Part shown: in pieces, positions 2,819 through 52,820 of the stretch
How positions within the stretch are numbered: position 1 is the stretch's first letter
Layout: each line of letters opens with the position of its first letter
Source of the DNA: Patescibacteria group bacterium
Lineage (GTDB): Bacteria > Patescibacteriota > Microgenomatia > Curtissbacterales > GWA2-41-24
NCBI GenBank assembly: GCA_038063735.1
Contig: JBBTUN010000006.1
Coordinates: 8,485-72,484, forward strand
Direction: 5' to 3'
Length of the DNA: 64,000 nucleotides
Made by a program: the position numbers and the translations under genes
Notes under the pieces: model-generated
What the model saw: the letters and a program-made list of their open reading frames with translations, nothing else
Told to the model about the DNA's origin: nothing
Databases searched by the model: none

Positions 2819-4888
2819 CTAAAAGCCTTTGGGGAATTCACCTGGTGTTTTTCTCATCTCGTCTGCTTTATCAAAATAGTTTTTGGCGTTTACTTGGTCT
2901 TTTAGGCAATTACTATAAACAACAGCAACAGCTTCAACGAACTGCCAGTTCTTGCTATCAATTCTGCTTGCAGTCATAAAATAATCCAATGCTTCGCTAC
3001 AATTTCCCCCTTTAAAGTAGACATCTCCCAAGATTGCGTAAGCTTCCTTTCGGTCTGGAAGTAACATTTTTGCCTTACTAGCAAAAAGTGTAGATTTTTC
3101 TAAACTCCCTTCTGTGAGGTGGTAATTAGCAACTGCGACAAGCGCTTTATAATATTGTTCTTCTATGTGTGTGGTTATATATTGGGTATAGCCAGTACTC
3201 TTTCCAAAGTCTTGGTAGTAAAATTTAGAAAAAGCTTCGTCATTTAGCCGAGATACCTCATCGCTAAAGTCATTGTCACTTGGGTATAACTTTTGGATAA
3301 GTCCTACCGGGAAAGATTTGTAATCTGGATCAAGAACTATATCTTGTATATAAATCGGGAATTTATCGAAGTTTGATTGCACCAAAGCATTCACTGCTCC
3401 TGGATAATCTTTAATACTCGGGTCTAAAAAGTTTTCCGGATAACTAAGTTGTGGGTATTGTTTAACAATCTGCTCTCTGTATTCCAAATAGCTAAGAGAC
3501 CCAGCAGCAATCAATTTTATATTCTCATAACCATCCATTTTGTAATAAATATATCGCGCGTTAAAAAGTGAAGTATCTCCTATTAAAAAAACTATGGCGT
3601 TCGGTTCCGCTGAAACTAAAATGTCGTGTCCATACCAATCTCCAACTTCAAACCGGCTTAAATTTGTCTTTGAATCATTTAAGAAGTAATTTGAAAAGAT
3701 GATCAGAAACAATGACAAGGTCAAAAGTAATTTAATTGAGTCACTTTTTAATACAGCAACTTTGGTATTACTTCTAAAAAATTTGTGGATAAAATTAATA
3801 ACGAACAAACACCCGTAAGCCATAAATATAGCGACAAGGAAGTAACTTGCTAAAATAAATCTTTCCCATAACCCTGTGTAAAAATCATTCGGTAGAGGGA
3901 AAGCAGAGTAAAAAACAAAAAATGGTCCTACAGAGAGTACAGATAAGATGAAAAACCAAAAGTAAATTCTGGCTCGGATAAAGCTATACACAATTCCGAT
4001 AAAAATAAAGAAAATGCCAATATGCGAGAAGTCAGCTTTAAGAAATGATGCAAACCCCCAAACCGACACCAGTCTCTGTAAAAACGTTGAAGAAACCAAA
4101 AATGATGAGGCTGTAAAAGTCCCGTAATCACTCCTTGTGATAAGTCGGACTAGGTTTTGGAAGCTAACAGGATCATCCCAATTTACTGGAGTTTTTCTTA
4201 GTGCAGCCCAAACAACAAAGATGTAAGGTAATAGTCCTAAGGCAAAAAAAGCGATTAGCCTAACAACAAGTAATTTATTTCTATAAATACTTTTGTCCGT
4301 TTTAAATAGGAAATACAGTATGGCAGGTAGTAAAAGCGCAGCAGTATGATGGTGAAACACTGCCAGTCCATAAAAAAACGCTGACCAATTTAATAATTTA
4401 TAATTTTTACTCTTTAAGTAAAATGACTCTCTCCACGAAATCAAAAAATAAATCGCAGCTGCTATTAAAACAATATTTAATTGGAAAACCTCATAAATAT
4501 GTGCGTACAGCCAATACAGGGGTACAAAAGCTAAAAAAAAGCTTGCAAACAAACTAGCAAATATATTTTTTGTCAACTTGTTACAAATCAAATACAATAG
4601 CGAGATAGCCAGCGCACTTAAAAATGCTGCTGCCAGGTTCGCCTTAAAAGCAACTGTTGCATTAAAAGGCAAATGGGTAAAAACCCATCCAATCATGGTG
4701 TTTAGGGGGTAACCTGGCGGATGTGCAACACCACCAAACCAGGAAGCCAAAATAATATCCCCGCTGTCTCCTCCATACACAGAATGCGAAACACCAAGCG
4801 CATATAGGGGAAATAAAAAAAGAAAAACCAAAATCGCCATCATTTTTATTTTAAACATTAAACCACAAAAAGAGGCACGCATACCCAT
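2819..4888 (-). CDS. DUF2723/TMEM260-like membrane glycosyltransferase (protein O-mannosyltransferase-like) with C-terminal TPR repeats.
   Basis: The N-terminus has the GDSGD...HPPGYPL signature of DUF2723. It is multi-TM and the C-terminus has TPR-like repeats. It lies 38 bp downstream of the pilin gene on the same strand. Confidence 0.6.
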   Translation of the reverse strand: MGMRASFCGLMFKIKMMAILVFLFLFPLYALGVSHSVYGGDSGDIILASWFGGVAHPPGYPLNTMIGWVFTHLPFNATVAFKANLAAAFLSALAISLLYLICNKLTKNIFASLFASFFLAFVPLYWLYAHIYEVFQLNIVLIAAAIYFLISWRESFYLKSKNYKLLNWSAFFYGLAVFHHHTAALLLPAILYFLFKTDKSIYRNKLLVVRLIAFFALGLLPYIFVVWAALRKTPVNWDDPVSFQNLVRLITRSDYGTFTASSFLVSSTFLQRLVSVWGFASFLKADFSHIGIFFIFIGIVYSFIRARIYFWFFILSVLSVGPFFVFYSAFPLPNDFYTGLWERFILASYFLVAIFMAYGCLFVINFIHKFFRSNTKVAVLKSDSIKLLLTLSLFLIIFSNYFLNDSKTNLSRFEVGDWYGHDILVSAEPNAIVFLIGDTSLFNARYIYYKMDGYENIKLIAAGSLSYLEYREQIVKQYPQLSYPENFLDPSIKDYPGAVNALVQSNFDKFPIYIQDIVLDPDYKSFPVGLIQKLYPSDNDFSDEVSRLNDEAFSKFYYQDFGKSTGYTQYITTHIEEQYYKALVAVANYHLTEGSLEKSTLFASKAKMLLPDRKEAYAILGDVYFKGGNCSEALDYFMTASRIDSKNWQFVEAVAVVYSNCLKDQVNAKNYFDKADEMRKTPGEFPKGF

Positions 4889-6707: not shown

Positions 6708-7802
6708 TCACTTCTCTTTGTCTTGCACAATCCTGCTTTCAATTAGCCGCTCAAGCTCTTTTGGTCTTAAACTGTACCTTTTGGCAGTATCAATAGAAAT
6801 TTTTCCGGCCCTAACCAAATAGGCAAGCGAGGCGTCAAAAAGCACCATGCCACTTTCTCCGGACGTTTGAATAATATTATCGATTTGGTGAGTTTTTCCG
6901 TCACGAACCGCGGTTTGCACGGCATTAGATGAAAGGAGAATCTCGCAAGCAGGTATCCTGCCCCCACCGATAACTGGAACCAAACGGATAGAAATTATTC
7001 CGGCAATTGTCGCCGCTAGTTGCATTCTAACTTGTGCTTGCTGGTTCTCCGGGAAAACGTCAATAATACGGTCAATAGATTGCGCAGCGCTGTTGGTGTG
7101 CAGCGTTGCAAACACCAAATGCCCGGTTTCGGCAACCGTTATAGCGGAAGCAATCGTTTCAAAATCTCTCATCTCACCAACCAATACAACATCTGGGTCT
7201 TCCCGCAGAGCGCTCCGCAGAGCAACATCCCACGAGTGCGTATCCAAGTGCATTTCCCGCTGGGAAACTAACGCCTTTCCCTTTGGATACACATATTCAA
7301 TAGGGTCCTCAATCGTCAATATATGCAGTGGTTGGTTCATATTAATTTCATTGATAACAGAAGCAATAGCCGTAGACTTTCCGTGCCCGGTAGGACCCGT
7401 AACCAAAATGAAACCTTGTCTCATGGCCGCAAAATTGTGCAGAATTCTTGGCAGGGACAATTCTTCAATAGTCTTAATATAATTTGGAATAAGCCTGAGA
7501 GCTGCCGAGATATACCCCTTTTCAAAGTAGGCATTAACCCTGAACCTGGCAACTTCTCCAAGAGCAAACGAGAAATCAATTTCTTTATTAACTGTAAACA
7601 TTTCCCGCTGCTCGGTAGAAAGAAGTTCAAAAACTAAACTTTCCGCTTCATCCGGCGACAGGGAACTGGACGTTAACGGTATTAACTGCCCATCGATCCT
7701 AATCATTGGAGGATGACCGGTAACCAAATGCAAATCCGATGCTTCTTTCTTTACCGTTATTTCTAAAAATTCCTGTATACCCATAAAATCAGTCAGGGTC
7801 AA
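6708..7802 (-). CDS. pilT: Twitching-motility retraction ATPase PilT. The real start is probably the ATG at 7784.
   Basis: Walker A GPTGHGKST and Asp/His boxes. Length is about 358 aa. The ORF-finder start is a TTG; an in-frame ATG (MGIQEF) lies 6 codons downstream. Confidence 0.85.
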   Translation of the reverse strand: MTLTDFMGIQEFLEITVKKEASDLHLVTGHPPMIRIDGQLIPLTSSSLSPDEAESLVFELLSTEQREMFTVNKEIDFSFALGEVARFRVNAYFEKGYISAALRLIPNYIKTIEELSLPRILHNFAAMRQGFILVTGPTGHGKSTAIASVINEINMNQPLHILTIEDPIEYVYPKGKALVSQREMHLDTHSWDVALRSALREDPDVVLVGEMRDFETIASAITVAETGHLVFATLHTNSAAQSIDRIIDVFPENQQAQVRMQLAATIAGIISIRLVPVIGGGRIPACEILLSSNAVQTAVRDGKTHQIDNIIQTSGESGMVLFDASLAYLVRAGKISIDTAKRYSLRPKELERLIESRIVQDKEK

Positions 7803-10429: not shown

Positions 10430-12403
<1,974 letters not shown>

Positions 12404-12430
12404 AATATAAATATAAATTTGCTGACGGAG

Positions 12431-12505
12431 CCCCTCTGAAATTGCGCCTTGAGCCGTGGCCGTGTATGAATAATACTGAAAAGGCGATAGGCAAAATTAG
12501 TGGGG
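12431..12505 (+). repeat. Copy A of a conserved ~70-nt structured element. It is followed (12506..12531) by an imperfect duplicate of the last ~25 nt of gyrB.
   Basis: The core cccc-aaatt-gcgcctYgagccgt-[variable]-tgaaaaggcgaWaggcaaaaWtYagYgggg is shared with 40893..40961. It has potential helices CCCC/GGGG and CGCCT/AGGCG. The downstream stretch gcaaagaatgcaactctagacatataa resembles the gyrB 3' end gcgaagtcagctactctagatatatga. Confidence 0.6.
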
Positions 12506-12532
12506 CAAAGAATGCAACTCTAGACATATAAC

Positions 12533-13063
12533 ATGGATTCACGCAGAAGGGAACAAACAGCCGTAGAGGAGAGGGGCGGGGCAAAAACAATTGAATTCCT
12601 GCAGAAATTTACGTTCTTCGATAAACCAATCCCGTCCAGTGATGATGAAATTATCGAAACTGCCGATATTGCATATAAAGACCGAGTGGTCGGCGGTTTG
12701 GTGGGCCGTATATTTACGAGTTCCGGAGAAAGAATTGCCGCAACAGGCGCACATATCGCATTTACAATCGACAAGAAAGATGACGAAGTAAATACAAATG
12801 CCGGTGTTACCAGACAATACGATCCGTTTGGAGCCAGGTTTGAAACATCTGTTTTTTACATGACTTTTTCGTCCGGACAAAAATATGCAAGCCTTGGCAC
12901 ACTCCAAGAATCTGGCAAAATTTCGTTTACGGACTGGATCGAGATTGACAAGAACGAAAATGAAGATAAAAACAAGGTCAAAAAATTATTACAACATAGG
13001 AAAGCTCAACCTCTACCATTTCGCTTGCACGAACTTATCGAAGCAAAATATAAAATAACATAA
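12533..13063 (+). CDS. Hypothetical protein encoded between gyrB and gyrA.
   Basis: 176-aa ORF with no recognisable motifs. It starts directly after repeat copy A and ends 2 nt before gyrA. Confidence 0.4.
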
Positions 13064-16915: not shown

Positions 16916-19900
16916 AAATTTTACTACTCGGCTCAGGCGCCCTAAAAATTGGCCAGGCCGGAGAATTCGACTATTCCGGTTCCCAGGCAATAAAAGCCCT
17001 CAAAGAAGAAGGCCACGAAGTTCTTTTAATTAATCCCAACATAGCTACCATTCAAACCTCCCAGGGTTTTGCCGACAAAGTTTTTTTCCTACCGGTAGAA
17101 CCTTACTTTGTTGCAAAAATAATTGAAGATGAAAAACCGGATGCTATTCTTCTTTCTTTTGGTGGACAAACTGCCCTAAACTGTGGCCTGGAACTTGCAA
17201 AAAAAGGTCTATTTAAAAAGTACAACGTAAAAGTCCTTGGAACAGGAGTAGATGCTATCGAAACCACAGAAGACAGGGAACTGTTTGTAAAATCCCTTAA
17301 CAAAATAGGCGCGCGTACCCCCAACAGCTTTGCCGCCAAAAACCTACAGGAAGCAAAAACTTACGCCCAAAAAATTGGCTATCCCGTTATGATCAGAAGC
17401 GCTTTTTCCCTGGGAGGTCAGGATTCGGGTATCGCCGCAAATCCAAAAGACCTAAAGGAAATTGTCTCCCGCTCTTTGTCTAAAGTAAAACAAGTCTTAA
17501 TAGAAGAATATTTACTAAATTGGAAAGAAATTGAATACGAGATAGTAAGAGACAAAAACGACAATTGCATAACCGTTTGCAACATGGAAAACATTGACCC
17601 TATGGGCATTCACACCGGAGAGTCCATTGTAGTCGCCCCATCCCAAACCTTAAATAACTACGAGTATCACACCCTCAGGGAAATAGCTATCAATGTAATA
17701 CGACACCTCGGCGTAGTAGGTGAGTGTAATATCCAATTCGCATTGAATCCAAACCCGCAAATGTCAACAGGACCCGCGCTGGATTATCGCATCATCGAAG
17801 TCAACGCCCGCCTCTCCAGGTCATCTGCGTTAGCATCAAAGGCAACCGGCTATCCTCTTGCCTACGTTGCAACAAAACTGGCACTCGGTTACTCGCTTAC
17901 AGAAATAAAAAATTCGGTAACGCAAAAAACTATCGCGTGCTTTGAGCCTGCTCTTGATTATCTGATTGTAAAATTTCCAAGATGGGATCTAACTAAATTT
18001 GTAAAAAGCAACCACCTTATCGGTTCATCGATGCAATCGGTAGGGGAAGTAATGGCAATAGGTCGTAAATTCGAAGAAGCAATTCAAAAAGCGGCCCGAA
18101 TGTTAGACCTTGGACTGGAAGGGATAACCGACGACAACATTCCAAATGCAGATTATAAAGAACCAACCCCCTGGAGACTCTTTAAAATTGCCCAAAAAAT
18201 CAAAGACGGCCAGCCAATAGAAAAAATAGCCGGGGCAACAGGCATAAATAAATTTTTCTTAGAAAAAATAAAAAATATCACAGATGCCGAAAATAATCTC
18301 AAAAATAAAAAAACCTTAACTCGCGAAAAGTTACTAAATTTAAAACAACTTGGATTTTCAGATAAACGCATTTCAACGCTATTAGACTCAACAAACCAAA
18401 AGGTCAAATCGTTAAGAGACAAATACAAAATCGCACCCGTAACAAAACAAATAGATACGCTTGCCGCTGAATACCCCGCACAAACAAACTATCTTTATCT
18501 CACATACAACGGCACAAAAGACGACATCGATTCAAACTCCAAATCACAAACTTCAAATACCAAACAATATCAAAATCAAAAACTTCAAACACCAAACAGA
18601 TCTAAAGAAGCTGATTTTGGAAATTGGAAATTGGAAATTGGAAATTCTGGCAAAGTCCTTATTTTGGGCTCCGGCCCATACCGGATCGGCTCATCAGTCG
18701 AATTCGATTGGTGTTCCGTAACTTCTGCTATAAGTGCAAAAGAAAATGGCTTCCTGCCTATTGTTATTAACTGTAATCCCGAGACCGTATCAACAGATTT
18801 TGATATGGCCGAAAGGTTATATTTTGAAGAGCTATCCGAAGAAACCGTACTGGAAATTTACAAAAAAGAAAATCCGCTTGGGGTCATTGTTTCAATGGGA
18901 GGCCAAAAACCAAATAACCTCACACCATATTTAGCCAGAGCCGGTGTAAACATTTTAGGTACAAGCCCCGCCTCAATAGACAACGCAGAAGACAGAGACA
19001 AGTTTTCAAAACTCTGCGACGATTTAGAGATTAGTCAACCACCTTGGGCAAAATTAAAAAGCACAGAAGACGCATTAAAATTTGCAAACTCGATTAAATA
19101 TCCTGTTTTAGTACGGCCCTCCTACGTACTTTCCGGGGCTGCAATGAATGTTGCATTCAACGCCCAAGACCTAAGCGAGTACTTAAGTCTTGCCAGTAAC
19201 GTTTCAAAAGAACACCCTGTGGTAATTTCCAAATTTATTCAAAACGCAAAAGAATTAGAAATAGATGCGGTGGCGTCCGGCGGCAATATCATTTGTCAGG
19301 CAATTTCCGAACACGTAGAAAATGCCGGTGTTCATTCCGGTGATTCTACACTCGTTCTCCCTGCCCAAAAACTATATATTCAAACCGTAAAAAAGGTTAA
19401 GGAAACTGCTGCCAAAATCGCCAAAAGCCTAAATATTTCCGGCCCGTTTAACATTCAATTTCTGGCGATCGACAACGAAATTATGGTTATAGAATGCAAT
19501 CTAAGGGCAAGCAGAAGTCTTCCGTTTGTCTCAAAAGTCTTAGGAACAAATTACGCGAAACTTGCAACCCAAGCTATATTGGGCTTGAATCCAAAACCAA
19601 TAAATAAAAAACTGCCAACCACTTATGTGGCAGTCAAAGCTCCTCAATTTTCATTTTCCAGAATCAAAGGCGCAGACCCCGTTCTTAGAGTAGAAATGTC
19701 TTCAACCGGAGAAGTAGCCTGCTTCGGGGATGACACAAGCGAAGCATTTCTGAAATCAATTATCGCAACAGGAACAACTTTACCCAAAAAAGCTGTCTTC
19801 ATTTCTTTAGCAGGAGACGAAAACAAAGCCAAGTTCTTGGACAGTGCCAAAACCCTAAATACCATAGGGCTAAAAATTTATGCCACAGCCGGCACCACAG

Positions 19901-20202
19901 CTTTTTTCAAAAAAAACGGGGTAGAGGCAACCATGCTATATAAAATTTATGAAAAGAAAAAGCCGAACGTTTTAAACGTGTTGCATTCTAAAAAAGTTGA
20001 CCTGGTAATTAATATCTTTGACCCATACTTTAAAAAAGAGTTCGATGATGACTACCAAATTCGAAGAACAACCATTGACTACGCAATTCCGCTACTCACC
20101 AATATGCAAACGGCCGAACTTTTCGTCCAAAGTATCAAAGAAAAAAAACTCAGTGATTTAAAAACTAAACCCTGGCAATCATACGTCAAATTTCAGAATT
20201 AA
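16912..20202 (+). CDS. carB: Carbamoyl-phosphate synthase large subunit.
   Basis: 1096 aa with two ATP-grasp halves and an MGS-like C-terminus. It carries a ~35-aa low-complexity insertion at the domain linker. Confidence 0.95.
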   Translation: MKILLLGSGALKIGQAGEFDYSGSQAIKALKEEGHEVLLINPNIATIQTSQGFADKVFFLPVEPYFVAKIIEDEKPDAILLSFGGQTALNCGLELAKKGLFKKYNVKVLGTGVDAIETTEDRELFVKSLNKIGARTPNSFAAKNLQEAKTYAQKIGYPVMIRSAFSLGGQDSGIAANPKDLKEIVSRSLSKVKQVLIEEYLLNWKEIEYEIVRDKNDNCITVCNMENIDPMGIHTGESIVVAPSQTLNNYEYHTLREIAINVIRHLGVVGECNIQFALNPNPQMSTGPALDYRIIEVNARLSRSSALASKATGYPLAYVATKLALGYSLTEIKNSVTQKTIACFEPALDYLIVKFPRWDLTKFVKSNHLIGSSMQSVGEVMAIGRKFEEAIQKAARMLDLGLEGITDDNIPNADYKEPTPWRLFKIAQKIKDGQPIEKIAGATGINKFFLEKIKNITDAENNLKNKKTLTREKLLNLKQLGFSDKRISTLLDSTNQKVKSLRDKYKIAPVTKQIDTLAAEYPAQTNYLYLTYNGTKDDIDSNSKSQTSNTKQYQNQKLQTPNRSKEADFGNWKLEIGNSGKVLILGSGPYRIGSSVEFDWCSVTSAISAKENGFLPIVINCNPETVSTDFDMAERLYFEELSEETVLEIYKKENPLGVIVSMGGQKPNNLTPYLARAGVNILGTSPASIDNAEDRDKFSKLCDDLEISQPPWAKLKSTEDALKFANSIKYPVLVRPSYVLSGAAMNVAFNAQDLSEYLSLASNVSKEHPVVISKFIQNAKELEIDAVASGGNIICQAISEHVENAGVHSGDSTLVLPAQKLYIQTVKKVKETAAKIAKSLNISGPFNIQFLAIDNEIMVIECNLRASRSLPFVSKVLGTNYAKLATQAILGLNPKPINKKLPTTYVAVKAPQFSFSRIKGADPVLRVEMSSTGEVACFGDDTSEAFLKSIIATGTTLPKKAVFISLAGDENKAKFLDSAKTLNTIGLKIYATAGTTAFFKKNGVEATMLYKIYEKKKPNVLNVLHSKKVDLVINIFDPYFKKEFDDDYQIRRTTIDYAIPLLTNMQTAELFVQSIKEKKLSDLKTKPWQSYVKFQN
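18619..18646 (+). repeat. (GGAAATT) x4 tandem repeat inside the carB linker insertion.
   Basis: ggaaattggaaattggaaattggaaatt encodes GNWKLEIGN. Upstream are CAAA-rich low-complexity codons (KSQTSNTKQYQNQKLQTPN). Confidence 0.7.
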
Positions 20203-21166
20203 CCTTCTTGTCAACGTAATTACCAACTTGACCATTTCCGCTATGAAAAGCCTTATGGACATCTTTAAGCTGAGAATTGGTAACGTGCGTGTAAATTTGT
20301 GTGGTAGCCACATTTTTATGGCCCAACATTTCCTGGACAGATCTTAGATCCGCTCCGTTTATTAAAAGATCAGTAGCAAAAGAATGTCGCAAAACATGCG
20401 GAGTAGCTTTAACAGGCAATCGAGCAGATTTGACATATTTTTCTACCATACGCTGGACAGAACGTGATGTTAATCTCATTTCTTCACTGCCAAGCGTTGG
20501 GTCGAGGCTGCCGGAATAACGAATGAAGAGTGGCTTAAACATATCTTTTCTTTTTTCCAAATACTTTCCTACCCATAGAGCAGCCCTGTCCGAAATAAAC
20601 ACAATCCTTTGTTTTTGCCCCTTGCCAATAATTCCAAATTCACGTCTCTCGAGGTTAATTGAGTCACGGTTTAATTTGCAAAGCTCCGAGACACGAAGAC
20701 CTGTCGAAAATAACATTTCAAGAAGTGACTTATCGCGGACTCCAGGTTCTGAGCTTACGTCTGGCTGGGCAAGTAACCGCTCCAACTGATCCCTATCCAA
20801 AAACTTTAATGACCTGCTTTCTGCCTTCGGCAATTCAATTTTGTCCGGCGTAACAACTTTTAAATCCTTCTTAACCAAATAGCGCAAAAAGGATCGCAGT
20901 GAAATAACATAATAATTTTGGGTAACCTTTTTTAGGGGCAAATTACCGTTCGTGCTTAAAAAGTGGGCTAAATACACTCGATACTTCCTTATTAAATCGA
21001 CTGTTAAGTCTTGAGGCTTGGAAATAGGCGCATTTCCCTTCTGCCAATCGTCAAAAAACTCCAAGTAATGTCGATAGTCGCGAATAGTAAGAGGGGAGAG
21101 GTTTCGCTCAATTTCGCAATATTCTAAGAAGTCGATGATCTGGGCAGTTAAATCAAACATAAACAA
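20186..21166 (-). CDS. Tyrosine site-specific recombinase, XerC/XerD-like.
   Basis: 326 aa with an N-terminal SAM-like domain. The C-terminus reads HVLRHSFATDLLINGADLRSVQEMLGHKNVATTQIYTHV, giving the R..HxxR..Y catalytic residues. It overlaps the carB end by 17 nt. Confidence 0.85.
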   Translation of the reverse strand: MFMFDLTAQIIDFLEYCEIERNLSPLTIRDYRHYLEFFDDWQKGNAPISKPQDLTVDLIRKYRVYLAHFLSTNGNLPLKKVTQNYYVISLRSFLRYLVKKDLKVVTPDKIELPKAESRSLKFLDRDQLERLLAQPDVSSEPGVRDKSLLEMLFSTGLRVSELCKLNRDSINLERREFGIIGKGQKQRIVFISDRAALWVGKYLEKRKDMFKPLFIRYSGSLDPTLGSEEMRLTSRSVQRMVEKYVKSARLPVKATPHVLRHSFATDLLINGADLRSVQEMLGHKNVATTQIYTHVTNSQLKDVHKAFHSGNGQVGNYVDKKVNSEI

Positions 21167-40615: not shown

Positions 40616-40787
40616 ATTAAAGAAGAATGATATAATAATTAACGCGTTCCATCAAGCTTTTATCATGCCGCGGTGCTGGAAAGAAAGTTTTGGCTCTGCC
40701 AAAAGTGATAGACAGTTACAAATCCTTTTTAATGCTTTGCATTAAAAACATGAGCAAAGAAAACTAAAACGTATAAAAAAACATAAT

Positions 40788-40871
40788 GGCGCGGTGGCGG
40801 AACTGGCAGACGCGTAAGTCTCAAAAACTTATGATCGCAAGATCATGTGGGTTCGACTCCCACCCGCGCCA
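40788..40871 (+). tRNA. tRNA-Leu, anticodon CAA.
   Basis: Manual cloverleaf: acceptor GGCGCGG/CCGCGCC, anticodon stem UAAGU/ACUUA with loop CUCAAAA, long variable arm UGAUC/GAUCA, and T-arm GUGGG-UUCGACU-CCCAC. CCA is not encoded. The supplied ORF 40786..41016 is therefore not a CDS. Confidence 0.85.
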
Positions 40872-40892
40872 CTTAAATACCGTGAGGGCTTA

Positions 40893-40961
40893 CCCCGTAA
40901 ATTTGCGCCTCGAGCCGTATTCGAGGAAAATTGAAAAGGCGAAAGGCAAAAATCAGCGGGG
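40893..40961 (+). repeat. Copy B of the conserved ~70-nt structured element, followed (40957..40982) by a degenerate duplicate of the tRNA-Leu T-arm and acceptor 3' end.
   Basis: Core ccccgtaaatttgcgcctcgagccgtattcgagg aaaattgaaaaggcgaaaggcaaaaatcagcgggg. The following gcggggttcgattc(tct)cccgtggca mimics the tRNA 3' end gtgggttcgactcccacccgcgcca. Confidence 0.6.
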
Positions 40962-41027
40962 TTCGATTCTCTCCCGTGGCACAACAAAAGAATATCTTAA
41001 AAATTTTAAAGAATGATAGGAAATGAT

Positions 41028-51767: not shown

Positions 51768-52820
51768 CTATACACTAAATTTAAACTCAACAACTGCTCC
51801 TTCGGGCATTACTTCACTCTTACCTATTGTCTTAACCAATCCTTTGGCTTTTGCCTCTTTCCATCCGCCAACTTCCACAAATTTGTCAAACGGCACAATA
51901 TCGGCCGCAATGAATCCTCGTTCAAAATCTCCATGGATTACCCCTGCCGCTACAGGTGCCAAACTGCCTTTTTTAATTGTCCACGCCCGCACTTCTTTTG
52001 GGCCCGCCGTCAAAAATGTCGCCAAACCCAAAACTTCATAGGCGCGTTTGGCCAGTTTTGCCAATCCGGAGTCTTTAACTCCTAACTCCGCAAGGTAAGC
52101 AATTTGCTCCTCACTAGTTAATGCCGCCAATTCTTCTTCCAATTTTGCACTAATTCTAATTGCCCCCTCAATTTCCGGCGCTTTTGATAAATCACCTTCA
52201 TCCGAATTAATCACCACAATTATTTTTTTAGCAGACAAAAGTGAAAGTTCACTAATTTTTGAAAGTTCTTCGTCGGTCGATTCGTCCGCTAGCCATTTCC
52301 CCTGCTCAATCAATCCTTTCGCCTTTTCAATTACAACTATCTTTTTTTCTAAACCCTGAACCCTAGACCCTAGAACCTTCTCCACTGTCTCCAAATCTTT
52401 CATCAACAATTCAGTCTTCAATACTTCCAAATCCTCTTTTGGATTTTCACCCGTTTTGATAATATCCTCATTTTTAAAATCCCTAACCACAAAAACAATT
52501 GCATCAACTTCGCGGATATGCGACAAAAATTTATTCCCTAATCCCTCACCTTTGTGGGCACCTCTTACAAGCCCCGCAATGTCCACAAATTCCACAACTG
52601 CCGGAATTATTTTAAAACCCGGAGATAATCCTTCGGATTTTTTAACTACATCCGCAAGAACAGCCAACCGCTCGTCTGGTACTTCCACTACACCAACGTT
52701 GGGCTCAATTGTCGTAAACGGATAATTTTGCGCCAGCGCAACTTGCTTTTTTAATAAAGCATTAAATAACGTTGACTTCCCAACATTAGGCAATCCCACT
52801 ATCCCAACGGACAAACTCAT
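51768..52820 (-). CDS. ychF: Ribosome-binding ATPase YchF (Obg family).
   Basis: GIVGLPNVGKSTLFNAL G1 motif, TGS C-terminal domain. 350 aa. Confidence 0.9.
   Translation of the reverse strand: MSLSVGIVGLPNVGKSTLFNALLKKQVALAQNYPFTTIEPNVGVVEVPDERLAVLADVVKKSEGLSPGFKIIPAVVEFVDIAGLVRGAHKGEGLGNKFLSHIREVDAIVFVVRDFKNEDIIKTGENPKEDLEVLKTELLMKDLETVEKVLGSRVQGLEKKIVVIEKAKGLIEQGKWLADESTDEELSKISELSLLSAKKIIVVINSDEGDLSKAPEIEGAIRISAKLEEELAALTSEEQIAYLAELGVKDSGLAKLAKRAYEVLGLATFLTAGPKEVRAWTIKKGSLAPVAAGVIHGDFERGFIAADIVPFDKFVEVGGWKEAKAKGLVKTIGKSEVMPEGAVVEFKFSV

Follow-up and report, generated by a model that had tools for sequence, protein, structure and literature searches.

At the end of a tRNA-Leu(CAA) gene (40788-40872) in a 64-kb stretch of DNA from a Patescibacteria group bacterium (contig JBBTUN010000006.1; the whole stretch is called the window hereafter), a conserved hairpin element is followed by a sequence that resembles the 3' end of the same tRNA. 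How did a working tRNA gene come to be trailed by a broken likeness of its own end, and what is the hairpin between the two? The first-pass annotation had offered two readings: the left junction of a decayed integrative element, or a small element that targets gene 3' ends and duplicates about 25 nucleotides (nt) of them. We consider it probable that a dead allele of the tRNA gene surrounds the working one and that a mobile hairpin, similar in its habits to the Rickettsia palindromic elements (RPEs), later settled at recombination scars. DNA positions follow the numbering of the window, and labels such as L022 denote loci of other sources. The tRNA-Leu locus was fetched from nine relatives, with dnaB as the anchor, and additionally from L005.

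A working tRNA gene enclosed by a second tRNA-Leu(CAA) allele

The working tRNA gene (plus strand), referred to as type A, was called by ARAGORN and by the Rfam tRNA model (56.7 bits), and an orthologue is present in all relatives. The tRNA-like stretch, gcggggTTCGATTCTCTCCCGTGGCA, lies at 40956-40981, and its tRNA-derived part covers 40962-40981. An ungapped alignment of TTCGATTCTCTCCCGTGGCA, the sequence 3' of the hairpin, with the genuine tRNA 3' end (GGTTCGATTCTCTCCCGTGGCA against GGTTCGACTCCCACCCGCGCCA) has 17 of 22 positions identical. The T arm consists of GAGGG (40884-40888), TTCGATT and CTCTC, the hairpin splitting the 5' stem strand from the loop. Given the ungapped alignment and the stem strand across the hairpin, the "tct" insertion that had been assumed within this T arm is unneeded. 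The conserved core had been placed 21 nt past the tRNA discriminator base, and the hairpin does start there, with the P1 strand CCCCG at 40893-40897. Between the end of the working tRNA and the T loop of the fragment lie 89 nt, comprising a spacer of only about 9 nt, the stem strand and the hairpin.

Such a resemblance might be a chance similarity in the GC-rich flank of a hairpin, and the short motif GGTTCRANYC alone would be expected about twice by chance in 64 kb. However, the 22-nt degenerate pattern covering both 3' ends has only two sites in the window, with 0.00 expected in shuffled sequences, and the segment matches the genuine tRNA-Leu(CAA) 3' end of the relative L005 at 25 of 29 positions. 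In addition, the same fragment is intact in L022, and the working tRNA is preceded by a 5' half that matches. Chance similarity is ruled out by the pattern, the L022 fragment and the 5' half, and retains practically no probability; the tRNA origin claimed in the first-pass annotation is thus borne out. Elsewhere in the window, the pattern revealed no further repeat of the tRNA 3' end, such as the downstream right-end repeat for which a search had been proposed.

A second tRNA-Leu(CAA) allele, type B, lies disrupted around the working gene: its remains span 40667-40981 on the plus strand, with a 5' part (40667-40774) upstream of the working tRNA, and the tRNA-like stretch is made up of its T loop, T stem and acceptor strand. 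The first section of the 5' part (40667-40719), recognised by pattern and by comparison with relatives, runs from the acceptor strand GCCGCGG (40667-40673) through the D arm (GGTGCTGGAA...TAGACAGTT) to the 5' anticodon-stem strand. The D-arm pattern (GGTGCTGGAA and TAGACAGTT separated by 0-30 nt) has one site in the window (40672-40717; 0.00 expected), lies within intact tRNA-Leu(CAA) genes in L024, L025 and L027, and is split likewise in L022. A 27-nt hairpin insertion in the D loop (AGAAAGTTTTGGCTCTGCCAAAAGTGA, 40682-40708) became apparent by comparison with the intact type-B gene of L024 and is shared by L022. The 5' side of the anticodon loop is replaced by an insertion of about 44 nt (40720-40763) composed of AAATCC, a U-rich/A-rich hairpin and a second segment; L022, L028, L024 and L027 have homologous segments (TATCC-T5-hairpin-A5C...CTAAAAC) after the 5' tRNA fragment. 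Next comes CTAAAACGTAT (40764-40774), the remnant of the anticodon loop with the 3' strand of the anticodon stem, which reads CTCAAAAACGTAT in the intact gene (compared with L024 and L027).

Downstream of the working tRNA, the 3' end of the variable arm and the 5' strand of the T stem (CCGT GAGGG, 40880-40888) match CCCGTGAGGG in the intact gene of L024 and CCCGTGAGAG in L022. Beyond the hairpin, the T loop TTCGATT, the T-stem strand CTCTC, the acceptor strand CCGTGGC and the discriminator A (40962-40981) were placed by the pattern, L022 and L024. The outer acceptor strands GCCGCGG and CCGTGGC (40974-40980) pair at seven of seven positions, with one G-U, while those of the working tRNA match one another and not the fragment.

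All loops of the type-B cloverleaf are interrupted: the D loop by 27 nt, the anticodon loop by about 44 nt, the variable arm by the type-A tRNA and the T loop by the hairpin. With one half upstream and the other downstream, the working tRNA is nested in the variable-arm region of a dead allele, and ARAGORN and Rfam detect the inner tRNA only. After removal of all four insertions by hand, ARAGORN recognised a cloverleaf only at a relaxed threshold of 80%, with a degenerate anticodon and the loop CUAAAAC. Having no intact anticodon loop and being unrecognised by tRNA finders, the type-B pieces are not a functional tRNA gene; L020, L026 and L029 have the simple tRNA only, so the wreck is dispensable. 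The supposed pseudo-copy of the tRNA 3' end is thus tRNA-derived, as had been proposed, but it is the tail of a disrupted second allele and not a duplication made by the element.

Two of the insertions show further features. On the minus strand, the D-loop insertion resembles an intrinsic terminator (40704-40688, TTTTGGCAGAGCCAAAA followed by a T-rich tail), and this putative terminator could mark the end of the dnaB-side operon. A conserved segment of about 45 nt (TATCC, a U5-stem-A5C hairpin and a second hairpin ending in CTAAAAC) stands after the outer 5' fragment, whichever allele is the outer one, and may represent either an intron-like insert or the scar of a junction.

Among the relatives, two sequence types of tRNA-Leu(CAA) circulate. 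Type B, which the window fragment (CCGTGAGGG...TTCGATTCTCTCCCGTGGCA) matches, is an intact working gene in L024, L025 and L027. The nested layout was also found in L022 and L028, each with mutually complementary outer acceptor strands (GCCGCGG/TCGCGGC in L022; GGCCAGG/CTTGGCC in L028), and L024 and L027 show the reciprocal arrangement, in which an intact type-B gene is preceded by a type-A 5' fragment. These reciprocal loci lie on the minus strand (L024, 9651-9840; L027, 7873-8060); the type-A fragment is 32 nt long and, in L027, 100% identical to the 5' end of the working tRNA of the window. Moreover, the gene content between tRNA-Leu and dnaB differs in almost every relative, the cargo including a SET-domain protein, a hydrolase, a Na/Ca exchanger, a NUDIX protein and small open reading frames (ORFs). 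The tRNA-Leu locus is a recombination hot spot.

The hairpin in the dead T arm and its family

The hairpin in the type-B T arm (copy 2, plus strand) is 73 nt long (40889-40961), and its covariance-model match extends over 40889-40965 (74.9 bits, E ~1e-22). From the outside in, it consists of CTTA, P1 (CCCCG/CGGGG), P2 (AAAUUU/AAAU), a GC/AA loop, P3 (GCCU/AGGC), a tandem GA/GA, P4 (GCC/GGC) and a variant tip hairpin, with a minimum free energy of -36.7 kcal/mol (z = -2.6). The other window copy (copy 1, plus strand; 12428-12510, 79.4 bits) lies after gyrB, where the core TTGCGCCTYGAGCC...GAAAAGGCGAWAGGCAAAA recurs at 12440-12496, and both copies fold into the same long hairpin. The next match in the window (3650-3725) reached 13.5 bits and was treated as noise. 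An inverted match at 52300-52332 was rejected as a third copy, as it lies inside an ORF and was undetected by the model, so that the window copies number two.

The family was collected by pattern scans of species genomes and metagenomes, after which a covariance model was built from relatives; individual genomes were read in windows of at most 22 kb. In total, 20 copies of about 75 nt were found in 16 sources, including two in the window, three in L014 and two in L009; the element is real and repeated, as had been noticed from the window alone. In the alignment, which was fitted to the covariance model, 93.1% of the cells are paired and double (compensatory) changes occur in 17 of 20 pairs, values reached by none of 500 shuffles, and the covariation score is 0.503, compared with at most 0.074 for slid partners. 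Four non-Watson-Crick motifs are kept, namely the GC/AA loop, the tandem G-A pairs, a GU/UGAAAA loop and a tip with a GAAUA-type pentaloop, and the conserved loops hold in the most diverged copies (L014, 1521-1597; L028; L009, 3148-3215).

No Rfam family matched the hairpin: the gathering-threshold scan of the window found the tRNA alone, and the non-tRNA matches of a permissive scan around both copies (E up to 10) were far below their gathering scores, none of them overlapping the hairpins. The family pattern had no match in viral contigs, and literature searches found nothing specific on an element of such kind in the candidate phyla radiation (CPR); the family appears to be undescribed so far. 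By eye, a K-turn was rejected for want of the 3-nt bulge that precedes the G-A pairs, and the hammerhead, hairpin ribozyme, twister, SRP domain IV, 5S loop E and box C/D were set aside because their core sequences differ.

The copies occupy diverse hosts. The P3 loop of RNase P RNA is filled by a copy in L003 and L018, and P1 of the glmS ribozyme in L010. One copy lies in the 3' domain of 23S rRNA (L014, 5062-5138), about 165-240 nt before the 3' end of the Rfam LSU match and near model position 2750, and three lie in 23S-5S spacers (L014, L007 and L015). In stable-RNA or tRNA contexts the orientation is sense in 10 of 10 cases. Intergenic copies fill gaps of 100-150 nt in either orientation, five being antisense to both neighbours. 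In L030, a diverged copy (17222-17299) stands in frame in carB and adds 26 amino acids (ESTNNSHLESSMGNSEKAKDKNGRTS); it is absent from the window and from L031.

Some of these hosts deserve a further remark. A different insertion of 15 amino acids occurs in carB of L032, in the same surface loop as the L030 hairpin, and is possibly another hairpin remnant. Within 7.2 kb, L014 (1-7216) carries copies in 23S rRNA, in the 23S-5S spacer and between rho and radA, and the changes in P3 and P4 of the rho-radA copy are fully compensated. Additionally, L003 and L004 are module-bearing metagenome-assembled genomes labelled "uncultured Gammaproteobacteria", of which the RNase P RNA and the context look CPR-like; the labels may be binning or taxonomy errors.

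Presence or absence of the hairpin among relatives was seen at three loci: the tRNA-Leu T arm, the gyrB end and carB. At the first of these, L022 keeps the same tRNA fragment uninterrupted, CCCGTGAGAG being joined directly to TTCGATTCTCTCTCGCGGCAC, whereas the window has CCGTGAGGG, 73 nt and then TTCGATTCTCTCCCGTGGCAC. The fragment therefore predates the hairpin, which is a later insertion at the junction of T stem and T loop. Together with L022, seven other closer relatives lack the element at this locus. L005, whose DnaB is 59% identical, has a hairpin at tRNA-Leu, but at another point of the T loop. That the window and L005 both inherited the tRNA-Leu copy from a shared ancestor was rejected in view of this difference and of the eight closer relatives without the copy. 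The hairpin of L002 sits in the T arm of a tRNA-Ile-like fragment. Among the 18 copies examined, the motif TTCRANY stands directly 3' of the hairpin in only two, so the tRNA piece is context and not a part of the element. The possibility, raised in the first-pass annotation, of a T-arm-like segment at every copy did not hold. No shared target motif and no fixed target duplication was found at the borders of the hairpins.

Other T arms are also broken by related pieces. After the working tRNA of L028 (about 7000-7190, minus strand) there are two successive tRNA-Leu 3' fragments, one of type B and one of an older type A, both with a T-loop hairpin that has the CCU-GA...GA-AGG motif (23 nt and 49 nt). 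In L002 (3580-4000, minus strand), downstream of 16S-tRNA-Cys-tRNA-Ile, two tRNA-Ile-like 3' fragments flank an ORF of 74 amino acids; both break at the border of T stem and T loop, one by a full hairpin and the other by a 26-nt piece (TCCTGAG...CGAAAAG). In this sample, the interruption lay at that border in five of five tRNA 3' fragments.

Duplicated gene ends beside the hairpin

Between gyrB and the next ORF, the window has an insertion of 129 nt that contains copy 1. Three relatives have no element here, and their gyrB stop codon is 1-3 nt from that ORF. Duplicate comparison identified the present gyrB 3' end upstream of the hairpin (GCTACTCTAGATATATGA, 12386-12403, plus strand) and a displaced older end downstream of it (GCAAAGAATGCAACTCTAGACATATAA, 12505-12531, plus strand). 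The latter starts at the hairpin base and adjoins the next ORF as in the relatives. It encodes AKNATLDI and a stop, as do all three relatives, whereas the live gyrB ends in AKSATLDI and a stop. The two ends differ by four synonymous codons and one non-synonymous codon. A sliding-identity comparison for a gyrB recombination tract showed all relatives to be about 20% diverged.

Similar copies were found elsewhere. A hairpin of L028 is followed by 86 nt that copy the end of prfA, and one of L009 by a 41-nt copy of the 5' end of a gene; shorter repeats lie next to the hairpin in L006 and L016. The gene-end copies are 21-86 nt long and begin 1-3 nt past the hairpin, and flanking repeats overall measure 15-86 nt. 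Pooled over the duplicate pairs, 23 synonymous codon differences stand against seven non-synonymous ones (P ~4e-9). Since the differences are mainly synonymous, both copies evolved as working genes in different lineages, and recombination, not duplication in place, brought these gene ends together as foreign alleles. The copies in RNase P RNA and 23S rRNA have no flanking duplicate above chance, so that the association with duplicated gene ends, which had been proposed for examination in all copies, holds for several of them (gyrB and prfA included) and not for these. At tRNA-Leu, the same pattern is seen with an RNA gene instead of a protein gene.

In glmS of L010 (4290-4440, minus strand), a 9-nt repeat, AGAAGGCGT, occurs 34 nt before and 4 nt after the hairpin (p ~0.017) and may be a partial duplicate of the ribozyme core. 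Near gyrB of the window, an ORF of 176 amino acids between gyrB and gyrA (12533-13063) has no Pfam match, and its position is kept in three relatives (170-186 amino acids). Some Curtissbacteria GyrB proteins (P0222 and P0232) are about 1076 amino acids long and have four GyrB domains plus an extra PF14890.

Origin of the arrangement and comparison with known systems

As a joint explanation, we propose that DNA of a related strain would have recombined into the tRNA-Leu locus with one-sided homology and left allele fragments, with homology-facilitated illegitimate recombination or merodiploid-type events behind the nested alleles. A 73-nt member of the hairpin family would later have inserted into the type-B T arm. 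Mobility, presumably through some enzyme, would account for the distribution of the hairpin, which in stable RNAs sits in peripheral hairpin loops and simply makes a helix longer. Its 3' base may be a preferred DNA joint, and allelic fragments would then begin 1-3 nt after the hairpin.

An integrative origin would instead make the tRNA-like segment an attL or attR remnant (the left or right attachment junction) of a decayed tyrosine-integrase element in tRNA-Leu. A diverged copy of the tRNA 3' end does follow the gene, the cargo between tRNA-Leu and dnaB varies, L028 has two successive 3' fragments, and several fragments break at the border of T stem and T loop, which we take to be a known integrase crossover position; sublocation preferences of integrases in tRNA genes were reportedly described by Williams in 2002. 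However, type B keeps its own 5' half upstream, which integration at a 3' end does not yield, the spacer is only about 9 nt, and in the working tRNA the two acceptor strands match one another, not the fragment. The variable cargo is found beyond the fragment and not between repeats, and no integrase turned up within or close to the variable region from NIF3 to dnaB, either in the window or in nine related loci. The neighbouring genes in the window are housekeeping ones (NIF3, EF-P and DnaB). The XerC/D-like gene (20186-21166), which the first-pass annotation had mentioned alongside this reading, is 20 kb away and adjoins carB in the window as in L031, so it is a core gene and not an island integrase. 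An attL-like junction as originally described is not supported, and we regard an integrase remnant as improbable. Less probable still is an element that duplicates about 25 nt on insertion into gene 3' ends. Copies after gyrB, prfA (L028) and other genes are followed by the end of the neighbouring gene (21-86 nt), but the duplicates vary from 15 to 86 nt, that of L009 is a 5' end, the excess of synonymous differences is that of alleles of different lineages, and above-chance duplicates are lacking in RNase P RNA and 23S rRNA; the glmS copy has its 9-nt flanking repeat (p ~0.017). At the tRNA locus it is refuted by the uninterrupted fragment of L022, although it pointed to a real and unusual association of hairpins with duplicates.

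The hairpin might also be a functional RNA module, a protein-binding site or a domain for tertiary contacts or stability, rather than selfish DNA. It would have been grafted onto RNase P P3, glmS P1, 23S rRNA and rRNA spacers and be expressed from tRNA and rRNA transcripts, and its position after tRNA-Leu would secure transcription and processing. The covarying stems, the four non-canonical motifs that are invariant even in the most diverged copies, the sense orientation in all 10 stable-RNA or tRNA contexts, a core nearly identical across distant genomes and the few copies per genome are consistent with such a role, as are the tip loop of GNR(N)A type and the tandem G-A pairs in the stem, both of which are typical of protein or tertiary contact sites. 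We know of no partner protein for it. Several points weigh against a mobile hairpin or limit the case for it. Copy number is low (two in 64 kb, at most three in 7 kb and one exact-pattern match per species genome), and the L014 copies have diverged with compensatory changes and kept loops, as is expected of a functional RNA family and not of a recent selfish burst. Between the window and L005, the hairpin core is more conserved than the adjacent tRNA. Neither a fixed-length target duplication nor terminal inverted repeats beyond the hairpin itself were found, and no transposase, recombinase or reverse transcriptase was linked to the family, no genome-wide transposase search having been made. 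The 23-nt mini-hairpin of L028, which shares both the GA motif and the T-loop junction, hints at more site specificity than random landing would give. The stems show no clear strand preference (10 G-U against six A-C), and the pair counts derive from the model-fitted alignment. Finally, the nearest relatives are about 20% diverged in DNA from the window, so insertion and precise loss are not formally separable at the T-arm site. A module alone, however, is at odds with close relatives that lack the hairpin at gyrB, tRNA-Leu and carB, with the five intergenic copies antisense to both neighbours in gaps of 100-150 nt, with the copy translated in frame within carB, and with a window copy that sits in a dead tRNA which the nearest relatives do without. 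We consider such a module possible, if rather unlikely. The mobile and the modular readings are not exclusive. A combination that we advance more hesitantly still is a Patescibacteria module of defined non-canonical architecture that, at the RNA level, would be read by a protein or RNA partner and grafted onto RNase P RNA, 23S rRNA and glmS and, at the DNA level, would be a preferred joint for foreign DNA that drives allele replacement, with nested or partial genes as the outcome, in reduced genomes that naturally scavenge DNA.

A mobile or modular hairpin family would be an addition to a large and poorly known bacterial radiation, whose reduced genomes are thought to hold very little repetitive DNA. 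Working genes nested in or beside foreign alleles of the same gene are direct sequence evidence of frequent one-sided recombination with the DNA of related strains. A module would explain odd helix extensions and poor standard-model scores of CPR RNase P RNAs, rRNAs and ribozymes, which matters for annotation and completeness checks. If it is read by a protein, it would constitute a new RNA-protein recognition unit shared by several essential ribonucleoproteins.

Among known systems, tRNA attachment sites share with this locus a partial, diverged copy of the tRNA 3' end beside an intact gene and variable flanking genes. Unlike these sites, the locus has no integrase, keeps the 5' half of the fragment upstream around a nested gene, and carries its cargo outside the repeats. 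One-sided homologous integration (PMC3240628) and partial duplications generated by transformation (PMC3784515) have been described. As in homology-facilitated illegitimate recombination and merodiploids, one-sided anchoring leaves partial duplications, which fits the divergence at synonymous sites. However, these processes were shown experimentally in competent model bacteria and not in CPR, and they are not known to place the joint constantly at the 3' base of one particular hairpin.

Intervening sequences (IVSs) or expansion segments of rRNA and the repeats of cyanobacterial RNase P RNA are stem-loops of about 100 nt in peripheral helices, patchy among relatives. IVSs are specific to helices 25 and 45 of 23S rRNA and are excised by RNase III, whereas the L014 copy lies in neither helix, and here one sequence family spans several RNAs, intergenic DNA and a protein gene. 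Large helix extensions have been reported in CPR RNase P RNAs (PMC8172020).

Repetitive extragenic palindromic (REP) elements, their mosaic arrays (BIMEs) with REP-associated tyrosine transposases (RAYTs), and the ends of IS200/IS605 insertion sequences resemble the family in being imperfect intergenic palindromes, often after stop codons, with covarying stems. REP elements are about 35 nt long, start with a GTAG-like tetranucleotide and are present in hundreds of copies but not known inside rRNA or RNase P RNA, and in REP and IS200-IS605-type ends a trans-acting enzyme recognises single-strand hairpins. The hairpins described here are about 75 nt long and do occur inside rRNA and RNase P RNA; no Y1 transposase was seen, and none was searched for. 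Flanking repeats of the kind that mark REPs or miniature inverted-repeat transposable elements are absent or variable (15-86 nt) and allelic, and no transposase was identified, the genome-wide search being outside the analysis.

The closest likeness is to RPEs, whose copy numbers, like those of REPs, are typically in the hundreds. The present family is dispersed and polymorphic by site, keeps its hairpin stem, and has insertions both in frame in an ORF and in RNA genes, as palindromic elements do. RPEs occur in ORFs and RNA genes, R. felis having 728 copies with 85 in ORFs and three in RNA genes (PMC1166351). Both families are short (about 100 nt), non-coding hairpin repeats that lie between genes, in frame within genes and in RNA genes, where their peripheral positions make them tolerable; the in-frame carB copy and the copies in RNase P RNA, glmS and 23S rRNA represent this here. 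Both also show presence and absence among relatives. The hosts belong to unrelated phyla (Patescibacteria/Curtissbacteria in the present case), and the comparison is one of traits, with no sequence kinship apparent. The family described here differs from RPEs in having far fewer copies and a much larger share in stable RNAs (always in the sense orientation), and in combining strongly conserved non-canonical loops with allelic duplicates of neighbouring gene ends.

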